20,000 bases of DNA from an uncultured virus (IMG/VR IMGVR_UViG_3300024346_000052) (IMGVR_UViG_3300024346_000052), one strand, 5' to 3'. Shown: positions 6,130 to 20,000, counted from the stretch's first letter. Notes: generated from the sequence alone by a model not told the origin. Program-made: numbers and translations.

Positions 6130-7506
6130 TTATTTTTTAAATTTACTTAAAGTTTTAGCTAAATTAGCTCTTTGTTGTGTTTTTTTACCGTACTCTCCAT
6201 CAGCAGCGGCATTTAATTTACTTTTTGGTATTTTCTCTCCTTCTGCAACACCTAAATCTTTTCTAAGTTGACCTGGTTTTTTAATAGCTCCCTTTATCCA
6301 GTTTTTTTTTAATGGAGTTTTAGCTCTATCTACTCTATCACCCATCCTATTAGCATAATCTTTATTAGAAATTCTATTTTTATTGTAGGTTGTGCTAGGA
6401 ACCATATTAGGAGTTCCATCGGCTTTAGTTCCAATATTTTCCATAGTAGTTTTGCCAGGTCTCATTTCGTAACTAACAGTATCTTTTTTATCAAGACTTA
6501 TAGACTGAGCTAGTGGGTATGCAGATTTTGCTGGCCTATATTTTTCCCCTGATTTTTGTTTTTTAGGTGGATCTATATGCATATTATTAAATGGTGATTT
6601 CTCAGCTCCACCCATAGCATCCATATTAGGATTCATCGGGTCTGATGGAGGATTAGGTTGCCCCATAGAGCTTGCTATATTAGAGAACATTTGCTCATTT
6701 TGAGATTGTGAAGCTGGCACTTTAGACGGATCCTGGTAATTGTTAGGATCATTTATAAGTACATTGGAATTAACAGGTCTTCCCGCTCTGTTTGGCTGAG
6801 CTGGAGTTTGCATAGGATCTTGCATGCCATCCGCATTGCCCTGAACGCCTGTAGTGTTTGGATTTAAATAATTCATAGGTGATTTTTCTTTACGATATTG
6901 TTTTCTTGCTTTTTTTGTTTCTAAATTAGCTTGTTTTTGTGAAATTCCTTTTTCTTTTGTAAAGCTAAAAGTTGGAATATTACTTTCTTTTTTCGGGAAC
7001 CATCCGCCATCTGGTGCACCTTTGTTATCAAAATAATCACGTGAGTTAGTTTTATTTACTGCACCTGGCTTATTAATTGTTAGTTTTTCAGGACCATCTT
7101 GTCTTGATCTTCTTATATTGTCTTTTTTCTCATTAAACTTTTCTTTAGCACCCGACTTCATTGCTTTTCTTTCTTTTTTGGCTTGCCTAAACTGATCAAT
7201 AGGATTTTTGCCAAAGTCTTGTTCAAAAGAATTACCCACGTTAATAGGCTTTCTAGTATTCATAGGTTTAATACCACCACCTTTATTTGTGACAGTTCCA
7301 TCTAAGTCATTAATGTTTGAAGGTATATTTCCAGGTATTGATCCAGTTGGATCTTGCTGTGAAGTATTTGGCTGTATATTGTTGTTAGAGGTTATTTGCT
7401 GCTGACTACCATCTGGTAATATATTAACCCTGGTATTTAAGTTAGCGAATACATCTTGAGTTCTTGACTTTATTTTTTTAGGGCTTTCGTAATCATTTTC
7501 TGCCAT
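6130..7506 (-). CDS. Hypothetical low-complexity protein, 458 aa, basic C-terminal domain (possible internal virion protein)
   Basis: ORF track. N/P/Q/K-rich; ends in NWIKGAIKKPGQLRKDLGV..GEKIPKSKL..AA...QRANLAKTL, a motif type recalled from small basic phage proteins. Confidence 0.7.
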   Translation of the reverse strand: MAENDYESPKKIKSRTQDVFANLNTRVNILPDGSQQQITSNNNIQPNTSQQDPTGSIPGNIPSNINDLDGTVTNKGGGIKPMNTRKPINVGNSFEQDFGKNPIDQFRQAKKERKAMKSGAKEKFNEKKDNIRRSRQDGPEKLTINKPGAVNKTNSRDYFDNKGAPDGGWFPKKESNIPTFSFTKEKGISQKQANLETKKARKQYRKEKSPMNYLNPNTTGVQGNADGMQDPMQTPAQPNRAGRPVNSNVLINDPNNYQDPSKVPASQSQNEQMFSNIASSMGQPNPPSDPMNPNMDAMGGAEKSPFNNMHIDPPKKQKSGEKYRPAKSAYPLAQSISLDKKDTVSYEMRPGKTTMENIGTKADGTPNMVPSTTYNKNRISNKDYANRMGDRVDRAKTPLKKNWIKGAIKKPGQLRKDLGVAEGEKIPKSKLNAAADGEYGKKTQQRANLAKTLSKFKK

Positions 7507-7943
7507 TACTTGTCTTTTTTAAAATTAATTATTGCTTTTTTTAATACTTTATCAGAATAACAACCACCTTTCATTATTTTGTTTGAAATTGGTGACAAAG
7601 GTATTTCATCCTCACCCATCATTATTCTATATATTTTAGCAATGAGTTGTTTGCATTTAAAAGAAGCTTTATATAAATGGTATTTTTGAGTTGTATGATT
7701 TCTTTTTCTCCAAACAATTATCCAGTTTTCTTTTAACAGTCTGTTCCATCTTCTGTTGTCCCAGCTGTAATAATAAGAGCCCTGTTTAAAATCTTGCTTA
7801 CTAAACATACCGATACTATCTAAGTATATCAACAACTCTAAGTCAGCATCGGTTATATTATTGTTTTTACAAGCCCATTTTCTTATTACCCTGTAATGCT
7901 TTAATATATTTAACTCTCTTATCTCTTTAGAAGTTATTCTCAT
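7506..7943 (-). CDS. Hypothetical basic protein, 145 aa (possibly winged-helix DNA-binding)
   Basis: ORF track; coupled to groES (ATGA) and to the downstream gene. ITDADLELLIYL...RLLKENWI...LYKAS is loosely MarR/wHTH-like (inference). Confidence 0.6.
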   Translation of the reverse strand: MRITSKEIRELNILKHYRVIRKWACKNNNITDADLELLIYLDSIGMFSKQDFKQGSYYYSWDNRRWNRLLKENWIIVWRKRNHTTQKYHLYKASFKCKQLIAKIYRIMMGEDEIPLSPISNKIMKGGCYSDKVLKKAIINFKKDK

Positions 7944-12264: not shown

Positions 12265-13512
12265 TTAGTCGTTTCTTTTAACTACGTATTTACCTTTTTT
12301 ATCTTCTTTAACTCTAGAATAATCTTGAACGCTAAGTTGTGGGTAATTTTTAGGATTATTACCTTTGTTTTTAAATTTAGCCTCAAAATCATCTTCACTA
12401 ACATAGTCTCCAGTGTTGTAATTGCTAAAACCTCTCACCGTATCGCTTTTCATAGCTTTTTCTTTAGGTTTTCCGTTCATGTTTAATGGTGAATGACTAC
12501 CACCTCTCATGTGTTTTAACACCTTACTTGCTCCCATGTGTGACAAAGCTTTAGGTTCTTGATCAATTACCGGTCCACCGTAAGATAAGTCTCTTGACAT
12601 ATTCATAGGAGAATCTTTTTTACCGTACATTTTAGCAGGAGAAGCCTCTATTTTAGCTTTTAATTCAGCTGGTAAATTATTTTGCTTACCAACTAGTTCT
12701 TTTTCAAGAGGTGATTTCTTACCATACATGTTCATAGGAGATTTATCATCAGCCCTTTCGTTTTCTAAATAATGTAATCTAGCCGATGCTGATAAATTCT
12801 TATTATAAGCTTCTTTGTTATCATAAGCTTTACCCGTCATCTGAACAGGAGATGCTTTTTTAGCTTTTTTTCTACTAGAATATCCTTGAGGGTTATTCAT
12901 TCTTATACTTCCATCATCTCTAAACTTACGATCACCAGTGCTCATTACTTTCTTTTTCTTTTGACCACTTGCTGTTTTAGTTTTCACTTTAACTGTAGCT
13001 TGTTTTTTACCTGATTTAGTTTTATATCTTTTGATTTTAACTTTAACCTTAGTACCACTATCAGTTGTATACCTGTCTTTTCTTTTTCCAGCTTTTTTCA
13101 TGTCCTTCATTTTAGCAGGTGATTTAGTCTTTTTGTCAACTTTTTCTAACTTCAACTGAATTTTAGCAGCTTTAGTAAATCCTTTATCCATTCTTTTATC
13201 AGCTTTTTCTTCTGATCCTTCACTTTTTCTAGGCTTTAAATTACCAGCTCTACCTTTAAAACTAGATAAGTTATTATTCTTATCTATTTTATTTATTAAC
13301 TTAGCTCTTTTTTTAGGAGATCCATCTGCTTTTTTTAAACCTTTAACAGCTTTCTTCTTATATTTTTTATTAAGCTTTGTTAATTGTTCTTTTTTCTTAG
13401 CTTCATTTTTAAAAGCTTTTTTTAAAGTCTTGTCTTGTTTTTTACCGGTTGTTGATTGAACTTTCTTTTCAAGCTTATCACCTTTCTTTCTAAGTCGATC
13501 TAATTTCTTCAT
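12265..13512 (-). CDS. Highly Lys-rich protein with repeated SPxx(M) motifs, 415 aa (histone H1-like composition; possible DNA-condensing/core protein)
   Basis: ORF track. Very K-rich N-half; SPKK, SPAKM x2, SPVQM, SPMNM x2, SPLEK, SPLNM. First gene of the leftward arm. Confidence 0.7.
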   Translation of the reverse strand: MKKLDRLRKKGDKLEKKVQSTTGKKQDKTLKKAFKNEAKKKEQLTKLNKKYKKKAVKGLKKADGSPKKRAKLINKIDKNNNLSSFKGRAGNLKPRKSEGSEEKADKRMDKGFTKAAKIQLKLEKVDKKTKSPAKMKDMKKAGKRKDRYTTDSGTKVKVKIKRYKTKSGKKQATVKVKTKTASGQKKKKVMSTGDRKFRDDGSIRMNNPQGYSSRKKAKKASPVQMTGKAYDNKEAYNKNLSASARLHYLENERADDKSPMNMYGKKSPLEKELVGKQNNLPAELKAKIEASPAKMYGKKDSPMNMSRDLSYGGPVIDQEPKALSHMGASKVLKHMRGGSHSPLNMNGKPKEKAMKSDTVRGFSNYNTGDYVSEDDFEAKFKNKGNNPKNYPQLSVQDYSRVKEDKKGKYVVKRND

Positions 13513-13858
13513 AATTTCTTTTAATACATGTATTATTATTTTTTGTTTAAGTACTTAAATATATAAGTTACATATTATATTTATTATTTACAATTGAACA
13601 ATAGTGACATTAGCCTGTTACTCTATACCTTATACTGCTATTGTCATACTTTTAAAAAAGTTGTAAAATATATAGAACCTAGGTGTTGCCCCCCTCCCTA
13701 TCCATTCCTTTAATCTAAGGAAAGTCAAATATACAAAGCGGGCCCCTCCTGTTTCATTTCTTATCTCGAATCTTTATATATTCTCATATGAGCTCTCGTC
13801 TGTATATGAATCGATGTCTCGTCTTCCCCCACATTCTTGACTTTTACTATTATAATAA
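13513..13858. promoter_or_regulatory. Divergent intergenic control region (possible origin or terminus/packaging region)
   Basis: Coding strand switches here. Contains inverted repeat TGACATTAGC/GCTATTGTCA (13605-13646), C-runs and a TCTCGTCT direct repeat (13794, 13817). Confidence 0.5.
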
Positions 13859-13890
13859 TACAATGTCAATACGATCTTCATTAGATAATA
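13859..13890 (+). promoter_or_regulatory. Repeated promoter-like motif copy 1
   Basis: TACAATGTCAATACGA-TCTTCATT-AGATAATA. Confidence 0.7.
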
Positions 13891-13919
13891 TAATCAACTA
13901 ACAAATAAATAATAACAAT

Positions 13920-14012
13920 ATGAATAACTTAAATAAAATCCTATCACTCGACATCGTACTACCTACATTCTTTATAACATATGAATTAATATTCTTACTA
14001 ATAATTTCTTAG
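13920..14012 (+). CDS. Hydrophobic microprotein, 30 aa
   Basis: MNNLNKILSLDIVLPTFFITYELIFLLIIS; directly downstream of motif copy 1 with an A-rich leader. Confidence 0.4.
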   Translation: MNNLNKILSLDIVLPTFFITYELIFLLIIS

Positions 14013-14075
14013 ATATGTTTACATGTCGCGCAGTACTTCTAGCTAATAAATAACATATAAACAAATATACACTTT

Positions 14076-14107
14076 TACAAACTAAATACGACAACAACAA
14101 GATAATA
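14076..14107 (+). promoter_or_regulatory. Repeated promoter-like motif copy 2
   Basis: TACAAACTAAATACGA-CAACAACA-AGATAATA. Confidence 0.8.
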
Positions 14108-14138
14108 ATAATAACTAAACTAAATAAATAATAAATAT

Positions 14139-14375
14139 ATGAAAACTAATAAACTAACAACTAAAAGATTTGTAATAAGAAAATCTTTACTCGGTACAAA
14201 TACAGTAATAACATTTACTAATAAGAAAGAAGTAACATTCACTTATGATCACGATGAAATTTACTCAACATTTCAACAAAAGTTTGAAGAAATGGCTTGT
14301 TTTCAACAGTACAAATCTTATACAAATTCTAATACTGTTCCAAAATTCTGTAGAGAATTAAGTACTCAGTCTTAA
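14139..14375 (+). CDS. Hypothetical early protein, 78 aa
   Basis: ORF track; follows motif copy 2. Confidence 0.75.
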   Translation: MKTNKLTTKRFVIRKSLLGTNTVITFTNKKEVTFTYDHDEIYSTFQQKFEEMACFQQYKSYTNSNTVPKFCRELSTQS

Positions 14376-14444
14376 AAACTAAAAGTCGACGTTGATAGTA
14401 ATACTTTAACGACTATAAATAACACGAACATATTACTCAACACA

Positions 14445-14488
14445 TAGCCGAAATGGTTGGAAGTGAGATTCGATTTCTCACTCGGTTA
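14445..14488 (+). ncRNA. tRNA-like mini-structure (acceptor-like stem + T-arm, no anticodon arm)
   Basis: TAGCCGA/TCGGTTA 7-bp stem, linker AATGGTTGGAA, GTGAGA/TCTCAC stem with T-loop TTCGATT. Confidence 0.5.
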
Positions 14489-14518
14489 CAAACTAATTAC
14501 GATAGTCGTAAGATAATA
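14487..14518 (+). promoter_or_regulatory. Repeated promoter-like motif copy 3
   Basis: TACAAACTAATTACGA-TAGTCGTA-AGATAATA. Confidence 0.8.
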
Positions 14519-14542
14519 ATAATAACTATAAAAATAAATAAT

Positions 14543-14743
14543 ATGTATCACTCTAATTCCCCTTCAAACTGGTCATGGAAAAAAGCTTTTGACGAAATGA
14601 ACAAGTATGTTCATCAAACAGAAATGACTCAACAATCTATAAATCACGTACTAAATTATCCTGGTGAAGCTAATGGTGTCTTTATGTCACTAAGTAAATC
14701 ACAACAAGATGATGTTTACGATATACTAAATCAAATAATATGA
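14543..14743 (+). CDS. Hypothetical early protein, 66 aa (MYHSNSPSNWSWKKAF...)
   Basis: Start moved from 14453 to the ATG downstream of motif copy 3 in an A-rich context. Confidence 0.7.
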   Translation: MYHSNSPSNWSWKKAFDEMNKYVHQTEMTQQSINHVLNYPGEANGVFMSLSKSQQDDVYDILNQII

Positions 14744-14820
14744 ATAAAGAACAAAAACTATTTGTAGCAATATTAATTTGCTCAATACTAATAATAATAA
14801 CAGATGTCGTTACAAACTAA
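14740..14820 (+). CDS. Hydrophobic microprotein, 26 aa
   Basis: MNKEQKLFVAILICSILIIITDVVTN; ATGA overlap with the upstream gene; stop lies inside motif copy 4. Confidence 0.45.
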   Translation: MNKEQKLFVAILICSILIIITDVVTN

Positions 14821-14842
14821 ACACGACAAATAATAGATAATA
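14811..14842 (+). promoter_or_regulatory. Repeated promoter-like motif copy 4
   Basis: TACAAACTAAACACGA-CAAATAAT-AGATAATA; ATG at 14848. Confidence 0.8.
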
Positions 14843-14847
14843 ATAAT

Positions 14848-15063
14848 ATGAATATAAAACAACATAAGCAAAAGCTTAACAAAAAATACAATCAAGCGAT
14901 TGTCGATAAAGTACTAAACTCAATGTGGTCAAAGCTCGGTAACGAGTTAGATGATGTTATGATGTCAGAAGGTTACTCTGAAACTAACAATGAAATGTTT
15001 GACGATCAAGATTGTTACTCAGGTATTATACTAAACATTATGAAGTTACAGTGTGATGAATAA
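14848..15063 (+). CDS. Hypothetical early protein, 71 aa
   Basis: ORF track; directly after motif copy 4. Confidence 0.7.
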   Translation: MNIKQHKQKLNKKYNQAIVDKVLNSMWSKLGNELDDVMMSEGYSETNNEMFDDQDCYSGIILNIMKLQCDE

Positions 15064-15113
15064 GTTTAACTGACGAGAGTTTAATACTCGAAACTACGCA
15101 AGTAGTCTTAAAC
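15064..15113 (+). ncRNA. Hammerhead ribozyme, type I
   Basis: Stem I GTTTAA/TTAAAC; core CTGACGA; stem II GAGT-TTAAT-ACTC; GAAA; stem III CTAC-GCAA-GTAG; GTC cleavage triplet, predicted cut after 15107. Confidence 0.92.
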
Positions 15114-15129
15114 AAATAATTAACTAAAT

Positions 15130-15387
15130 ATGAAAAAAATAATAATGACTATAGGTGCATTTGCACTAATGTCTTCGGCAAGTAATAAGAATTACCCTTC
15201 TGATCAACTATGTTATGCTATGTTGAACTTATCTCAAATGCAATTAGAAATGTGGGAAGATCTTGAAAACGGTAAACTTACTCAATCTCAAGCTGAAAAC
15301 TGGAATGAAATAATTGAAGAAACTTATATATTCATTGAAGATTATTACAAGCATTTACCTGATGGAACATTAGTAGATAACTTTTAA
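15130..15387 (+). CDS. Hypothetical protein with signal-peptide-like N-terminus, 85 aa
   Basis: MKKIIMTIGAFALMSSAS followed by an acidic domain. Confidence 0.7.
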   Translation: MKKIIMTIGAFALMSSASNKNYPSDQLCYAMLNLSQMQLEMWEDLENGKLTQSQAENWNEIIEETYIFIEDYYKHLPDGTLVDNF

Positions 15388-15419
15388 TACAAACTGAATA
15401 CGAATAACAATAGATAATA
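15388..15419 (+). promoter_or_regulatory. Repeated promoter-like motif copy 5
   Basis: TACAAACTGAATACGA-ATAACAAT-AGATAATA. Confidence 0.8.
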
Positions 15420-15442
15420 TAATTAAATAAAATAAAATAAAT

Positions 15443-15625
15443 ATGAATAAATCAGAAAAAACGGCAATTACGTCAATTACAGGAATACTAATGATAGTAT
15501 TAGTAGCAATAGCAACATCTTGCTCACCTACACAAACAGCTTATAAATCAGGAGTTAAAAAGAAATTTAACGGAAAACTAGTAAGTCACGCGCATAACTA
15601 CAACGCTTGTCCAGCTTATCAATAA
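15443..15625 (+). CDS. Putative small lipoprotein, 60 aa
   Basis: Hydrophobic stretch ILMIVLVAIA then TSC (lipobox-like Cys). Confidence 0.6.
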   Translation: MNKSEKTAITSITGILMIVLVAIATSCSPTQTAYKSGVKKKFNGKLVSHAHNYNACPAYQ

Positions 15626-15634
15626 AATATAACT

Positions 15635-15805
15635 ATGACAGAACAACAAGCAATTGAAGCAATCGCTAATGATATACAAGATGGTATCTACGGTTGGACA
15701 CAGAAATGTGGAACAGAGTGGCAAAAGTGGACATATTCACTAATGCAAGCTAAGAAAATATATAATGGTGATTTAATAATAAATTTAAGTATAGAAAATG
15801 AATAG
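15635..15805 (+). CDS. Hypothetical protein, 56 aa
   Basis: Hand translation MTEQQAIEAIANDIQDGIYGWTQKCGTEWQKW...SIENE; fills the gap. Confidence 0.65.
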   Translation: MTEQQAIEAIANDIQDGIYGWTQKCGTEWQKWTYSLMQAKKIYNGDLIINLSIENE

Positions 15806-15983
15806 AGATAGAGAATGGGATTTTATGGAAGAACATAGAGAGCTAATGGAAACAGAAGATGAAAGATCTTTACTAGCAACTTTTGCACTAGTAGTCAGAG
15901 AACTCGCTATAAAGTTTCCTAATGATCAAGAATTAGGTGCAGAAGTAAGAAAATTAATACAAGATTATAAACTAAATACATGA
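15798..15983 (+). CDS. Hypothetical protein, 61 aa
   Basis: ORF track; contains FPNDQELGAEVRKL; overlaps both neighbours. Confidence 0.7.
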   Translation: MNRDREWDFMEEHRELMETEDERSLLATFALVVRELAIKFPNDQELGAEVRKLIQDYKLNT

Positions 15984-16207
15984 AAAAAATAATAATAGCA
16001 GCAAGTTTTTTATGCTTATTAAGTTTTAACACTAAAACTGATACAGTAAAAAACAAAATATTTCAAGCAACGCAAGTACAAACAACACTAAGAGAAGAGT
16101 TGTATTGGATTTATATAGACAATCCTACACTAGAAAACAAAAGTAATCATGTAGATGCTTTATATGTAGAGACTTTATTAAAAGAAATTCTAAATGATAC
16201 AATTTAA
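15980..16207 (+). CDS. Hypothetical protein with signal-peptide-like N-terminus, 75 aa
   Basis: MKKIIIAASFLCLLSFN; ATGA coupling to the upstream gene. Confidence 0.65.
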   Translation: MKKIIIAASFLCLLSFNTKTDTVKNKIFQATQVQTTLREELYWIYIDNPTLENKSNHVDALYVETLLKEILNDTI

Positions 16208-16229
16208 AAACGAACACTAACAGATAATA
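16198..16229 (+). promoter_or_regulatory. Repeated promoter-like motif copy 6
   Basis: TACAATTTAAAAACGA-ACACTAAC-AGATAATA; ATG at 16235. Confidence 0.7.
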
Positions 16230-16234
16230 TATAT

Positions 16235-16378
16235 ATGAAAACAATTAAATTTTACCCAAGCAATAGGTCACTAATAAGATTAGATGACAAAATGATAAAA
16301 GGTTACACTATAGATAGTATACCAGACAACATAAACTCATGGTTTAACTATAAAGGTCTAACTTACGTAACAAGTTGA
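16235..16378 (+). CDS. Hypothetical protein, 47 aa
   Basis: Hand translation MKTIKFYPSNRSLIRLDDKMIKGYTIDSIPDNINSWFNYKGLTYVTS. Confidence 0.65.
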   Translation: MKTIKFYPSNRSLIRLDDKMIKGYTIDSIPDNINSWFNYKGLTYVTS

Positions 16379-16392
16379 TATAAACCCAACTG

Positions 16393-16437
16393 ACGAAACT
16401 AATAGCTCATACTTGATCAGTATGGGCTTTTCGTGGT
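16393..16437 (+). ncRNA. Conserved RNA hairpin element, copy A
   Basis: ACGAAA-CTAAT-AGCTCATACT-TGATC-AGTATGGGCT-TTTCGT-GGT, then ATG at 16438. Confidence 0.6.
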
Positions 16438-16878
16438 ATGAAATGTAACCACAATATTCCACAAGCAAGATTAAATCTTGGCTATAAAGTATGTGTCGAT
16501 TGTAGTACAGTAGAAAAACTCGGCTGTATTGACACTATAAATCATAAAACTGGCAATACTATTCAAGTAATGTCACGTGAAGATGCAGAAAAAGCCAATA
16601 AGTTAACAAAACGAGCAGGTTTTGGTATACTAAGATCTATGTCTAATGGTTCAAGTCAACGTAAAGCTAATATGATCACTGGATGCTCAACTACTTTTGT
16701 AGGTAACGACGTAATGTTCGAGCAAGTAGGTAAAACTTACATGGATTATTTAGAAGTTGATGAAGAAATTGCCCAGCGCTATCTCGATCGAGCGCTAAAC
16801 AACGTAGAAATATCTCAATTACAATATAATAAGATAAAATTACTTTGTTACAGTCTAAATACGATCAATAATAGATAA
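16438..16878 (+). CDS. Zinc-finger-like protein, 146 aa (DksA/TraR-type finger-like N-terminus)
   Basis: C...IPQARLNLGYKVCVDC resembles the IP.ARL...C..C part of DksA/TraR fingers. Confidence 0.6.
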   Translation: MKCNHNIPQARLNLGYKVCVDCSTVEKLGCIDTINHKTGNTIQVMSREDAEKANKLTKRAGFGILRSMSNGSSQRKANMITGCSTTFVGNDVMFEQVGKTYMDYLEVDEEIAQRYLDRALNNVEISQLQYNKIKLLCYSLNTINNR

Positions 16879-16880
16879 TA
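16849..16880 (+). promoter_or_regulatory. Repeated promoter-like motif copy 7
   Basis: TACAGTCTAAATACGA-TCAATAAT-AGATAATA. Confidence 0.75.
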
Positions 16881-16894
16881 TATTTAAATAATAT

Positions 16895-17041
16895 ATGAAT
16901 AAAATAACAAAAAAGCTCGAAAACTTGTACTCTTGGACAAAATTCTATCAAGATCGAGGTAATAAAGAAGCAATTAGAAAATGTCAAACTGAAATCGCAC
17001 AGTTAAAACAAGCGTTTAATCAATTAAAGTCTAAAAAATGA
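16895..17041 (+). CDS. Hypothetical protein, 48 aa
   Basis: Hand translation MNKITKKLENLYSWTKFYQDRGNKEAIRKCQTEIAQLKQAFNQLKSKK; ATGA coupling to the next gene. Confidence 0.65.
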   Translation: MNKITKKLENLYSWTKFYQDRGNKEAIRKCQTEIAQLKQAFNQLKSKK

Positions 17042-17328
17042 AAGATACTAACGCTATTGAAAAAGCACTAGAAAATAAGTGTAAACAAGAAATAAACCAA
17101 GTAGTCAACGTTTTTATGAACGAACTCGAAGTAAAAATCAGAGGTGAATATAGTTCAGCTAATTATTACGACTTTACACCACCAAACAACGATGGCAAGA
17201 AATCTTTTCACGTAATGGGTACTGAACAATTAAAAAATGTACTATTTAGAATGATTTCAAATGCTCATCTTGAGTCTATGGTTGCTTTAAAATCAAAAGA
17301 ATTAATTAAAAAACTTGAATTAGTATGA
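17038..17328 (+). CDS. Hypothetical protein, 96 aa
   Basis: ORF track; coupled to both neighbours. Confidence 0.7.
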   Translation: MKDTNAIEKALENKCKQEINQVVNVFMNELEVKIRGEYSSANYYDFTPPNNDGKKSFHVMGTEQLKNVLFRMISNAHLESMVALKSKELIKKLELV

Positions 17329-17630
17329 AAAATAGAACACTAAACGAAATTAGACAATCAAAAGAGTATCAACAAGCTGTTAAATCAGGAAATAATCTAG
17401 ATTTAAATGTTGATGTAGCTATAGACGAAATAGTAGATAATCTCAATACTCACTTGTTTGATATAATATTTCAAACAGTAAATGATGAAATGCATAAGTA
17501 TACTGTGTTTCAAGAACAAACTTATCTAACTCCTGAAGGCATGGATATGTTTGAAGAGCAATGGTTCGAGTTTTATCATGAGCATCACGGTGAAATTCTA
17601 GGTAGAATAATGAAAACTCTTACAAACTAA
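17325..17630 (+). CDS. Hypothetical acidic protein, 101 aa
   Basis: ORF track; stop lies inside motif copy 8. Confidence 0.7.
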   Translation: MKNRTLNEIRQSKEYQQAVKSGNNLDLNVDVAIDEIVDNLNTHLFDIIFQTVNDEMHKYTVFQEQTYLTPEGMDMFEEQWFEFYHEHHGEILGRIMKTLTN

Positions 17631-17652
17631 ATACGAACACTAAAAGATAATA
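17621..17652 (+). promoter_or_regulatory. Repeated promoter-like motif copy 8
   Basis: TACAAACTAAATACGA-ACACTAAA-AGATAATA; ATG at 17658. Confidence 0.8.
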
Positions 17653-17657
17653 TAAAC

Positions 17658-17879
17658 ATGTTATACGATAAATTAAAACCACATATCAAAGCCAAAATGA
17701 AAGAAAATGCTGAAGAGTATAAATCTGTCAATTGGATTATTGATGAACTAAAACAAAAAAACAATTATTCTGACTTAACTATTGAGCAAATAAGATCTAT
17801 CTGTACATTTGGCGATGTATGGTATTATGATCTTACGCAGAAAGAGTTAATATGGGGTGATTGGTTAACAAATAAATAA
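17658..17879 (+). CDS. Hypothetical protein, 73 aa
   Basis: ORF track. Confidence 0.7.
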   Translation: MLYDKLKPHIKAKMKENAEEYKSVNWIIDELKQKNNYSDLTIEQIRSICTFGDVWYYDLTQKELIWGDWLTNK

Positions 17880-17881
17880 AT

Positions 17882-18232
17882 ATGAACGAAGAAAAACTAG
17901 CTTTAGAAACATTAAAAGCACTAGGTGCTAAAGACACATCAAGTCCATCTCAAATAAAAAGAGGTACAACTTGCTTTACATTACCAACAGGTGACTGCGT
18001 GTCTGAACACAAAACAGGTTATATCAGAAAAAATCTACTAAATAAAAACGGTGGAATATATACTTGTTATCAACTAAATCCACAATATAAGACAATTGAA
18101 AAGTCTATAAGTTGGAATGGTAAAGAGCGTGTTGACGAAAGAAACAACAGGATGTTGATATGGAATAGAGCTGAAAGACTAAAAAGATTAGTCCTTTACA
18201 CAATAAAACAAATAAATAAACTAAATAAATAA
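17882..18232 (+). CDS. Hypothetical basic protein, 116 aa
   Basis: ORF track. Confidence 0.7.
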   Translation: MNEEKLALETLKALGAKDTSSPSQIKRGTTCFTLPTGDCVSEHKTGYIRKNLLNKNGGIYTCYQLNPQYKTIEKSISWNGKERVDERNNRMLIWNRAERLKRLVLYTIKQINKLNK

Positions 18233-18242
18233 ACTAAAAAAC

Positions 18243-18689
18243 ATGGAAGAATTAACCGAAGAAAGAATAATAGAATTAGTAAAAGATCACTTTGAATTAG
18301 AAATATCAACTGATATAATGAATTTTGAAAATCGTGATTTTATGATATACAGTGAAAGTACAGCAGATGGCTACGAAGTATTTATTGCTACACATGACCC
18401 AAGAAACCCATCAATATGTGAAGAAGTGCACTATTACGATAGTGATTTGTCTAAAATTTTTACAGATCAAATAAGCTATGGAGATAAAAGCTTTTACATT
18501 TGCGATGGTATTTACGAAGATTGTTATTTTGATGAAGCTTTAGTAGAATTGTTTGCTGATGTTGTTGAAGAAGTAATTCAAGAAGCAGAAGATGGCGAAG
18601 GAAATACTAATATTACAAAAAAAGAAATAGAGATTTTAAAAATAAATCATGGCTTAAATGCCGAAGAAATTGAAGAAACTGTTAGTTAG
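18243..18689 (+). CDS. Hypothetical highly acidic protein, 148 aa
   Basis: ORF track; very D/E-rich. Confidence 0.7.
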   Translation: MEELTEERIIELVKDHFELEISTDIMNFENRDFMIYSESTADGYEVFIATHDPRNPSICEEVHYYDSDLSKIFTDQISYGDKSFYICDGIYEDCYFDEALVELFADVVEEVIQEAEDGEGNTNITKKEIEILKINHGLNAEEIEETVS

Positions 18690-18743
18690 TTAATAGTAGT
18701 TTAGTTTCCACGATAGTTACTGAATAGGCCCGACCAGCAGGTA

Positions 18744-18791
18744 ACGAAAGTAACACTAGCTCGTACTCAAAAGGTACGGGCTTTTCGTGGT
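18744..18791 (+). ncRNA. Conserved RNA hairpin element, copy B
   Basis: ACGAAA-GTAACACT-AGCTCGTACT-CAAAA-GGTACGGGCT-TTTCGT-GGT, then ATG at 18792. Confidence 0.6.
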
Positions 18792-19007
18792 ATGGATAAT
18801 ATAGGAATGATGAAAGCGTTTATGTTACTAGGTGACTTACACGCTACAAGCACAGACAAGTTAAGCGACTCAAGAGTTGCTTACAAAGAAAGAATAGCTT
18901 TTGCTACAATGAGAGCTAGTATACCTGATTGGCAACCGCCAAGTGACTGGAATAGTTTAACTAATAAAGAAAAACTAAACAGACTTGATAAACTACAATC
19001 AGTATAA
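18792..19007 (+). CDS. Hypothetical protein, 71 aa
   Basis: ORF track; C-terminal PSDWNSLTNKEKLNRLDKL. Confidence 0.7.
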   Translation: MDNIGMMKAFMLLGDLHATSTDKLSDSRVAYKERIAFATMRASIPDWQPPSDWNSLTNKEKLNRLDKLQSV

Positions 19008-19008
19008 T

Positions 19009-19040
19009 TACAAACTAAATACGATAACTAACAGATAATA
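19009..19040 (+). promoter_or_regulatory. Repeated promoter-like motif copy 9
   Basis: TACAAACTAAATACGA-TAACTAAC-AGATAATA; ATG at 19046. Confidence 0.8.
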
Positions 19041-19045
19041 TTATT

Positions 19046-19354
19046 ATGATGAACGAAGATGAAATAGAAAGACTAGCTGATTTATTGTTTGATAAAATAA
19101 TGGAAAAGCAAGAAGAAGCAGACAGAGAGTATGCTGAACAAATAGTTAAATTAGCTAAAGATGGTTATGTAGTAAATGACATAACTGACAAACTAGAACT
19201 CAATGAAGAAGAAAAACTAGTAGGTGAATTAGCTAAAATGCAGACAATTATGATGATTCTCGAAGACAGAGAGGAATATGAAAAAGCTGCAGTAATACAA
19301 AAGAAAATTAAAAATATAAACAAGAAATTAAACAATGGATCAGGAAGATATTAA
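19046..19354 (+). CDS. Hypothetical coiled-coil protein, 102 aa (C-terminal UVR-domain-like EEYEKAAVIQKKI)
   Basis: ORF track; the motif resembles the UvrB/UvrC interaction helix-hairpin. Confidence 0.65.
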   Translation: MMNEDEIERLADLLFDKIMEKQEEADREYAEQIVKLAKDGYVVNDITDKLELNEEEKLVGELAKMQTIMMILEDREEYEKAAVIQKKIKNINKKLNNGSGRY

Positions 19355-20000
19355 AGCTATGCTAGCGCATAAGTACAATGAAGATAAAGCAGATTACCCT
19401 GCATTTATACAACCAAAACTAGATGGCGTACGCTGTTTATTTACTGCAAAAGGCGCTGTCTCTCGTGCTAATAACCAGTTTATGAATGTAGAGCATATAG
19501 AACAAGCTTTAAAGCCTTTCTTTGCAAAGAATCCTACAGCTATTCTTGACGGCGAATTATACAATCACGGTCTAAAAGATGACTTCGAAAAGATTATATC
19601 TCTTGTTAAAAAGAAAAAACCAACAGATGCTGATAGAGCTGAAGCTAAAGAACTAGTACAATATCACGTATATGATGTAGCTAGTATGACAATAGGCACT
19701 TATACAGACAGAAATTTGTTCTTACAAATGCTAACTTATACTCATCCTATTTGCAAAGTTGATACTAAATTAGCTCTAGATTTTGACGACGCTCAAAAGA
19801 TGCATGCTAAAAACCTTAAACTAGGTTACGAAGGTTCTATATATAGAACTACTTATGGCAAATACAAAGGTACTAGATCATGGGATCTTATGAAGTTTAA
19901 AGACTTTCACGATGCAGAAGCTACAATCGTTGGCTATGAAATAGGTAAAGGTAAACGTGAAGGTACACTAGGTAAATTCCTTATGCAAGATGATGACGGA
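19335..20000 (+). CDS. ATP-dependent DNA ligase (partial, runs off the window)
   Basis: Not in the ORF track. Hand translation MDQEDIKAMLAHKY...QPKLDGVRC (motif I, KxDG)...ILDGELY (III)...YHVYDV (IIIa)...GYEGSIYR (IV)...LMKFKDFHDAEA (V). Confidence 0.93.
   Translation, partial: MDQEDIKAMLAHKYNEDKADYPAFIQPKLDGVRCLFTAKGAVSRANNQFMNVEHIEQALKPFFAKNPTAILDGELYNHGLKDDFEKIISLVKKKKPTDADRAEAKELVQYHVYDVASMTIGTYTDRNLFLQMLTYTHPICKVDTKLALDFDDAQKMHAKNLKLGYEGSIYRTTYGKYKGTRSWDLMKFKDFHDAEATIVGYEIGKGKREGTLGKFLMQDDDG

Follow-up and report, generated by a model that had tools for sequence, protein, structure and literature searches.

The window analysed here is a 20,000-nucleotide stretch of DNA from an uncultured marine phage (IMGVR_UViG_3300024346_000052), whose minus-strand arm carries GroEL, amidase, holin and tail-like genes, and whose plus strand, from approximately position 13850 on, carries small genes without a known family up to an ATP-dependent DNA ligase. 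The protein encoded at 7506-7943 matched 77 records, all of which came from Flavobacterium, Cellulophaga and Maribacter phages (including phi38:1) together with one uncultured phage. Putative Flavobacteriaceae phages bearing GroEL constitute group 2 of PMC5332604 (excerpt), and the 7506-7943 matches place the window phage with this group. From this likeness we infer a phi38:1-related flavobacterial phage and, with it, a flavobacterial host. The nearest phage record (G001, 71% complete) overlaps only the first 186 bases of the interval 13500-20000, and no RNase III gene was found in this record.

In the early arm of the window a promoter-like repeat occurs about ten times. A type I hammerhead is located at 15064-15113, in the same early region as the element considered here, which we refer to as the scaffold. 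Two of the promoter-like repeats place an ATG 6 nt past a -10-like hexamer (ATGs at 16235 and 17658), so short leaders look normal for this phage. The scaffold is present in two copies (Table 1) and, as a preliminary description of this DNA had stated, the ATGs that abut them open ORFs, of 146 and 71 aa. The first encodes an N-terminal zinc finger with weak likeness to DksA/TraR (PHROG 54, E 0.008), and the position of the second is occupied in relatives by other genes or by none. The further remark that these are the only GC-containing start contexts in an A-rich set looks right by eye. With respect to transcripts, 24 RNA runs were considered, all as assembled contigs, and four were compared with the window. 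One contig (X1) spans copy 1 (16223-16467), and another begins inside copy 2 (18773-19408); contigs of this kind give no ends, strand or level, the libraries may contain DNA, and nothing is concluded from them.

Table 1. Features at and around the two scaffold copies; nick positions are predicted from the register of T7 R1.1.
Feature	Position	Strand	Remark
Promoter-like early repeat before the 47-aa gene	about 16198-16230
Small gene, 47 aa	16235..16378	+	Upstream in the copy 1 unit; ATG 6 nt past the -10-like hexamer of the early repeat
Copy 1, P1 (lower stem) 5' arm	16389..16398	+	Pair probability 0.72-1.0
Copy 1, slot A, empty (5-nt one-sided bulge)	16399..16403	+	Inserts of 20-130 nt here in relatives
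Copy 1, P2 (upper stem), 10 bp	16404..16428	+	Conserved U-G wobble at pair 4; loop is slot B
Copy 1, conserved 3' box and P1 3' arm	16429..16437	+	Predicted nick 16432/16433
ORF, 146 aa	16438..16878	+	Start 5 nt past predicted nick of copy 1
Gene, 148 aa, acidic, no family	18243..18689	+	Upstream of copy 2
Copy 2, P1 true 5' arm	18708..18713	+	Pairs with 18785-18790, probability 0.87-0.99
Copy 2, structured insert in slot A, 39 nt	18716..18754	+	Separate domain in the fold
Copy 2, P2, loop is slot B	18758..18782	+
Copy 2, conserved 3' box	18783..18791	+	Predicted nick 18786/18787
ORF, 71 aa, no family	18792..19007	+	Start 5 nt past predicted nick of copy 2

Each copy consists of a lower stem (P1) and an upper stem (P2), with two slots at which further sequence can be accommodated, namely slot A, which lies between the stems on their 5' side, and slot B in the apical loop. 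The existence of both hairpins, as first reported, is confirmed. Specifically, the 17 bases up to and including the ATG are identical in the two copies (16424-16440 and 18778-18794), with 0.03 matches expected and two matches observed in 0 of 200 shuffles, and the folds give z-scores of -4.56 (copy 1) and -3.49 (copy 2). The 10-bp stems differ in the manner described: pair 6 is A-U in one copy and G-C in the other, pair 10 is U-A in one and U-G in the other, and the two 5-nt loops are different. A lower stem formed by ACGAAA and TTTCGT had been proposed for both copies; it is found in copy 1, where 16393-16398 pairs with 16429-16434 (probability 0.86-1.0), and not in copy 2. There, the hexamer at 18744-18749 that had been assigned as the 5' arm does not have that role, and a different arm, further upstream, does the pairing. 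The insert of copy 2 comprises a 6-bp outer stem, a conserved purine-rich 6x6 internal loop, a 3-bp inner stem and a 9-nt loop, and in relatives the same insert type is also found nested in another carrier insert. When 40 more upstream bases are included, the short fold of copy 2 gives way to a three-way arrangement. The original description had overlooked the main feature of the element, its swappable inserts, one of which is within copy 2 itself.

The homologue search suggested at the outset yielded further covarying members in IMG/VR. The 17-base pattern was located at 55 loci, 47 of them with the stem, and further scans for the window's phage group gave at least 235 matches in at least 168 contexts. 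In a set of 55 members, a start codon on the same strand lies within 80 nt in 50, and one on the opposite strand in 7. When 172 distinct contexts were compared, the ATG was fused to the scaffold in 126, preceded by a stop codon in 9 and replaced by something else in 37; abutment on a start codon is thus correct for both window copies and does not extend to the whole family. At exactly 5 nt past the predicted nick, an ATG opens an ORF of at least 40 codons in 117 of 158 contexts, and the ORFs at this offset represent 14 unrelated protein families. Pistol or hammerhead ribozymes were also observed near other scaffold members.

Many other AT-rich phage contigs, and a few genomes, contain a simpler form that shares the stem register and the 3' box. 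The latter include a Mucilaginibacter locus, with a tRNA and an integrase-like ORF as neighbours, and a Saprospiraceae contig on which the simpler form recurs several times, each time ahead of a gene. A model built from 23 simpler-form members, none of them of the window's stem type, recovered both window copies, at E 2e-4 and 3e-4, with no other noteworthy hit across 97 kb. Model searches of the cultured relatives phi38:1 and elemoF did not detect the motif, and short blastn queries against INPHARED gave only chance-level or partial matches, with no ready model phage among them.

To assess covariation, 57 distinct members were registered on the base of the stem, after six doubtful rows had been dropped by eye; at least seven pairs were required, and most members were found with a pattern that fixes the 3' strand. 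Under these rules pairs 2-8 are formed in 57 of 57 members. Pair 2 is G-C in 32 members and C-G in the other 25. At pair 4, 55 of 57 have a U-G wobble, even though the left strand could have supplied a C for a C-G pair. Because MAFFT shifted the left-arm register where loop lengths differ, counts were taken from the registered pairs and from a gap-free subset of 23 members, in which two-sided changes affect six of ten pairs (3 of 500 shuffles; slid controls, one or two). When the hairpin by itself was the query, 25 full contexts were obtained; their 3' box is conserved all the same (21-25 of 25 per column), and pair 2 covaries 18 to 7. The lower stem covaries as well, with the pair at +4 formed in 21 of 31 members against 11.9 expected (p 1e-4). 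Few independent lineages stand behind these covariation counts. Taken together with the strand and position bias of the homologues, they bear out the earlier proposal of a selected RNA structure: the scaffold is a selected two-stem RNA, encoded on the same strand as the genes that it closely precedes.

In terms of what the slots contain, we collected 116 distinct inserts with a minimum length of 20 nt; slot A, or the space between tandem copies, accounts for 88 of them and slot B for 28. Greedy clustering gave 46 clusters; some of these split one module, so we put the number of modules at 35-46. Of the clusters, 29 are represented by more than one insert and two are present in both slots, while 35 inserts are composite and 8 strictly nested; clusters 5, 27 and 32 are present at both of the window's genomic sites. 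Ten arrays were found in which two or three scaffolds lie 92-171 nt apart. In six of these the longest internal ORF is at most 19 codons, and in the remaining arrays it is 35-82. The predicted 5' ends of array fragments are paired (above 0.8) in 6 of 11 cases and those of single copies in 36 of 127, a difference too weak to use. Cluster 32 forms a three-way junction: every one of its 182 cells is paired, four pairs show two-sided changes and the loops are nearly fixed. Variants of the copy 2 insert show four two-sided pairs in six sequences, a pair count that alone is not significant (48 of 500). In the two inserts tested, unpaired bases are kept while the stems covary. Inspection by eye shows two-sided changes in clusters 5, 20, 27 and 28 as well, and an insert in L228 and L242 has, within a stem, a G-rich tract with the potential to fold into a G-quadruplex. 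Interchangeable structured inserts are thus carried in two fixed slots of the scaffold. They are probably cargo, because a plain stabilizing hairpin needs no dozens of folds with conserved unpaired bases, and because mRNA processing alone would hardly call for three sites within 250 nt that hold no gene. Our guess is that they are selected binding domains (decoys or ligands for host proteins, or binders of small ligands) rather than filler.

Comparison with known RNA families gave no identity for scaffold or inserts. Rfam covariance models (ribozymes, riboswitches, RAGATH and Flavo-1) had no match to either in window positions 13400-20000 and 80 loci, in a scan that also missed the window's hammerhead and is therefore not fully sensitive. 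This is in keeping with the earlier suggestion of a possibly unnamed motif. Among the Rfam entries, those for CRISPR repeats and ToxI likewise matched no insert. Inspection of the scaffold revealed no conserved core of hammerhead, twister, pistol or REP type, and ARAGORN reported 0 genes in the window and 30 loci, which sets aside a tRNA-like processing element. A decoy of 23S rRNA was also rejected, as judged by sequence likeness: no insert resembles flavobacterial 23S, and against Flavobacterium 23S and its flanks 0 of 46 clusters beat all 40 shuffles. The flavobacterial 23S flanks offered no usable processing stem for comparison.

Of the three functions originally offered for the hairpins, an RNase III-like site has positive sequence support, a leaky terminator is disfavoured and a protein-bound operator stays as a rival. 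For the first of these, the early intergenic regions of T7 were folded from NC_001604, a record without site labels, so that the names R0.3-R1.3 and R1.1 used here are those we take to apply. The T7 early RNase III hairpins resemble the scaffold in being sited between early genes, in being repeated with different loops and in having a 9-10 bp upper stem above an internal loop and a U-rich 3' strand at the proximal box. R1.1 additionally has A-U, G-C, U-G and C-G pairs in the same register. In contrast to the T7 hairpins, the scaffold has a one-sided internal loop that starts one pair earlier, a G-C rich lower stem, a conserved 3' box, an ATG 5 nt past the predicted nick and two slots with large swappable inserts; the T7 hairpins were not found by scaffold model R1.

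The register of R1.1 could be fixed because PMC1540722 (excerpt) gives its 11-bp helix, its proximal box (G-C, A-U, A-U, A-U) and its 28-nt excised stem-loop. In that register, copy 1 shares six of nine pairs with R1.1, itself picked out of five T7 hairpins, and copy 2 shares five of nine; among 277 other hairpins in AT-rich loci, none reaches six and five reach five, and 12 of the 57 members share three pairs or fewer. With two further positions, the 10-bp upper stem attains the 11-bp minimum between cut and loop. At the proximal box, both window copies have G-C at position 1 and A-U at position 2, and the family has G-C (32) or C-G (25) at position 1 and A-U (28), G-U (20) or no pair (9) at position 2. 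G-C or C-G at position 2, which blocks E. coli RNase III (PMC1540722, excerpt), does not occur. In a straight-helix reading, positions 3 and 4 are paired in only 10 and 26 of 57 members; pairing there requires the lower stem to stack on the upper one, with the bulge or insert pushed out of the helix. In copy 1 both become A-U once the 5-nt bulge is extruded. Our literature search found no test of an RNase III substrate with an extruded bulge or insert.

Other determinants agree less well. The distal box is A-U/U-A in the window copies and varies across the family, departing from the U-A/U-G rule, and its sequence may not be conserved across phyla (PMC1540722, excerpt). The pairs just past the predicted nick are G-C in the scaffold, and G-C at the equivalent position suppresses cutting by the E. 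coli enzyme (PMC1540722, excerpt), which makes one E. coli cutting determinant doubtful here; all determinants compared are those of the E. coli enzyme and may not be those of a Bacteroidota enzyme. Moreover, the sequence conservation of the 3' box goes beyond what RNase III rules explain. Natural E. coli sites themselves fit the consensus poorly (PMC5371410, excerpt), with a similarly loose fit in 10.1101/2023.03.12.532304 (excerpt), and the R1.1 match is therefore suggestive only. The enzyme itself is found in nearly all bacteria (PMC8782170, excerpt), and an RNase III gene match was obtained in four of four Bacteroidota genomes tested (three over the cut-off). On this likeness, the odds that the scaffold works like an RNase III site appear fair.

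We consider it a little better than an even bet that the scaffold is an RNase III processing site of early transcripts that carries shuffled RNA domains. Host RNase III would bind the 10-bp upper stem as it does in T7 R1.1 and would nick the 3' strand four bases past it. The nick would free the downstream start codon from the lower stem, giving a near-leaderless mRNA (5 nt of leader), and the upstream RNA would keep the hairpin and its inserts as a protected 3' end. Where scaffolds stand in tandem, one nick after another would set free RNAs of 90-170 nt made of inserts. The fixed scaffold may also supply the short homology through which inserts and downstream genes are exchanged in the phage population.

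The conserved 3' box and the poor fit just described can also be accommodated if the scaffold is bound and left uncut by RNase III, or by another host or phage protein that reads the 3' box, so that translation or stability of the downstream gene is controlled and the inserts tune binding or add sites. RNase III does control translation of lambda cIII and adhE (PMC5371410, excerpt), and such binding would suit the conservation of the box apart from its pairing, the ATG distance fixed at 5 nt, the bulge within the proximal box and the G-C pairs at the predicted cut. We nonetheless regard binding alone as unlikely, at roughly one chance in six, given that most members outside the window's phage group have the start 19-51 nt downstream and that inner array copies are followed by no gene.

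Somewhat less likely still is a leaky intrinsic terminator that doubles as a recombination cassette, in the manner of the PeSL stem-loops of T4-type phages. Here the scaffold does present a GC-rich hairpin followed by four U, genes are exchanged at its 3' edge among relatives, the early repeat sometimes comes directly after it and, in L506, near-identical copies flank one gene. Against this, a terminator scan (at least five U in eight bases) flagged neither window copy, in which the four U run into a G-rich box, and 7 of the 25 members from the hairpin-only search have a run of just three U. The lower stem covaries beyond the U run, so the U run must be transcribed through. The near-universal U-G wobble also argues against termination, as do the promoter-like repeats, neither window copy adjoining one and only a few of the 172 contexts having one directly after the scaffold.

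The sharp insert junctions seen in relatives, the nesting and the tandem arrays could be attributed to a single-stranded DNA signal (an end of attC, REP or HUH type) for a cassette-inserting recombinase, with the inserts as selfish or neutral passengers, and folding energy indeed gives the inserts no sense-strand advantage (25 of 46 clusters). We think this improbable in view of the strict sense orientation, the fixed distance to start codons, the conserved U-G pair, which becomes an A-C mismatch on the other strand, and the unpaired insert bases kept while stems covary. A self-cleaving ribozyme of undescribed class, in the scaffold or in some inserts, is slightly more improbable again. In its favour, a hammerhead occupies the same early region, pistol or hammerhead ribozymes lie near other members, and cluster 32 is a three-way junction whose loops are conserved. 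Against it, the scaffold in its minimal form is a bulged hairpin without a conserved multi-helix core, and no insert matches an Rfam ribozyme.

With processing by RNase III as the preferred reading of the scaffold, a more tentative proposal, which we would put at well under even chances, concerns the inserts. They may form a natural combinatorial library of RNA aptamers or decoys, made up of dozens of folds selected independently of one another, and nested, chained and swapped by way of the RNase III scaffold. Released from it as stable early RNAs, they would have host defence proteins, nucleases or signalling nucleotides as binding partners. Phage non-coding RNA decoys are exemplified by the Racr and pseudo-ToxI RNAs. 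A fixed processing stem around a variable inner sequence is also familiar from the intervening sequences that RNase III excises from rRNA; those lie in rRNA and are discarded, whereas the inner parts of the scaffold keep their own structure and are recombined. Viral single-guide RNAs (10.64898/2026.06.01.729453, excerpt) are small structured RNAs of accessory regions and suggest a possible role for the inserts, but such decoys mimic one known host RNA, whereas the inserts amount to dozens of unrelated folds. For the recombination side, the nearest case is the shuffling of PeSL cassettes in T4-type phages (PMC2839356, excerpt), in which repeated intergenic stem-loops occupy a hyperplastic early region with gene swaps at the edge. 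PeSLs join a sigma-70 promoter to a working terminator (PMC2839356, excerpt). In the window, by contrast, the promoter-like repeat stands apart, the evidence speaks against termination, and structured RNA domains form part of the cargo.

Our literature search found no description of the scaffold, which may be listed in the supplement of PMC5737381 or in the alignments of PMC10690425. We regard it as real and undescribed, with its assignment to the class of RNase III sites made by sequence likeness. If the preferred reading is true, this would be a widespread undescribed RNase III-type site of Bacteroidota phages with a precise predicted cut. It would also provide a simple route to near-leaderless mRNA in hosts that, as Bacteroidota, make little use of Shine-Dalgarno pairing. 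As a design for expressing small structured RNAs, the scaffold would be ready for use in Bacteroidota. More is to be gained from the inserts, which comprise 35-46 short natural RNA folds with conserved unpaired bases, each of a size that can be synthesised and tested, and which behave like accessory genes in an abundant marine phage group. The extent to which phages use non-coding RNA against their hosts would become directly testable by way of these inserts and, if they do form a library of the kind proposed, they would parallel, at the level of RNA, the neighbouring small genes for anti-defence proteins.

With respect to self-cleaving RNAs near the two-stem scaffold, the window itself contains a minimal type I hammerhead ribozyme, variants of which, with covarying stems, were found in three further loci (L126, L171 and L231). 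This ribozyme was missed by the Rfam scan of the window, which returned no match at its position. Close to motif members in other sequences, one pistol ribozyme was also observed, together with two hammerhead matches that were weak (table).

Features in the window and in other loci (L-numbers; own coordinates)
Feature	Sequence	Coordinates	Strand	Context
Minimal type I hammerhead ribozyme	Window	15064-15113	+	Directly upstream of ORF 15130
Pistol ribozyme	L360	1003-1067	-	~1 kb or less from another motif member
Two weak hammerhead matches	L352	2000-2088; 2536-2583	-	≤ ~1 kb from motif members
Two near-identical 40-nt motif copies	L506	1540-1500; 1925-1885	-	Mucilaginibacter prophage-like region
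Free-standing two-stem hairpin with internal loop	Window	14446-14487	+	Immediately 5' of promoter-like repeat
Weaker candidate module	Window	14380-14430
Possible pairing past copy 1 nick	Window	16433-16452	+
Promoter-like early repeat, ~10 copies	Window	13854-19040	+
Pyrimidine-rich non-coding stretch, several hairpins	Window	13680-13830
Longer element ending 3' in the scaffold's 3' box	L416	1461-1521		~14 similar gut Firmicutes loci

Of the inserts carried in slot A, the site between the stems on the 5' side, cluster 2 was present in circularly permuted form in L248, which hints at a tandem duplication or a circular intermediate. The paired motif copies of L506 sit on either side of a single 83-aa gene in a cassette-like arrangement, and the free-standing hairpin in the window may be a further module located outside the scaffold. 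In scaffold copy 1, the five bases past the predicted nick are able to base-pair with the downstream gene at its codons 4-5; this pairing, a possible alternative fold once the predicted cut has been made, would place the ATG of that gene inside a loop.

The early repeat is by appearance unlike the promoter consensus of the presumed host. The ATGs at 16235 and 17658 begin 6 nt past its -10-like hexamer, a spacing that suggests leaderless transcripts would arise from these copies. The pyrimidine-rich stretch coincides with the switches in coding strand and GC skew and is likely a genome end or origin region.

The longer element typified by L416 is flanked by an amidoligase-like gene on one side and a gamma-glutamylcyclotransferase-like gene on the other, labels assigned by reading the ORFs rather than by family search. 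It had no match in Rfam, and may be distantly related to the scaffold, though from a different phylum.
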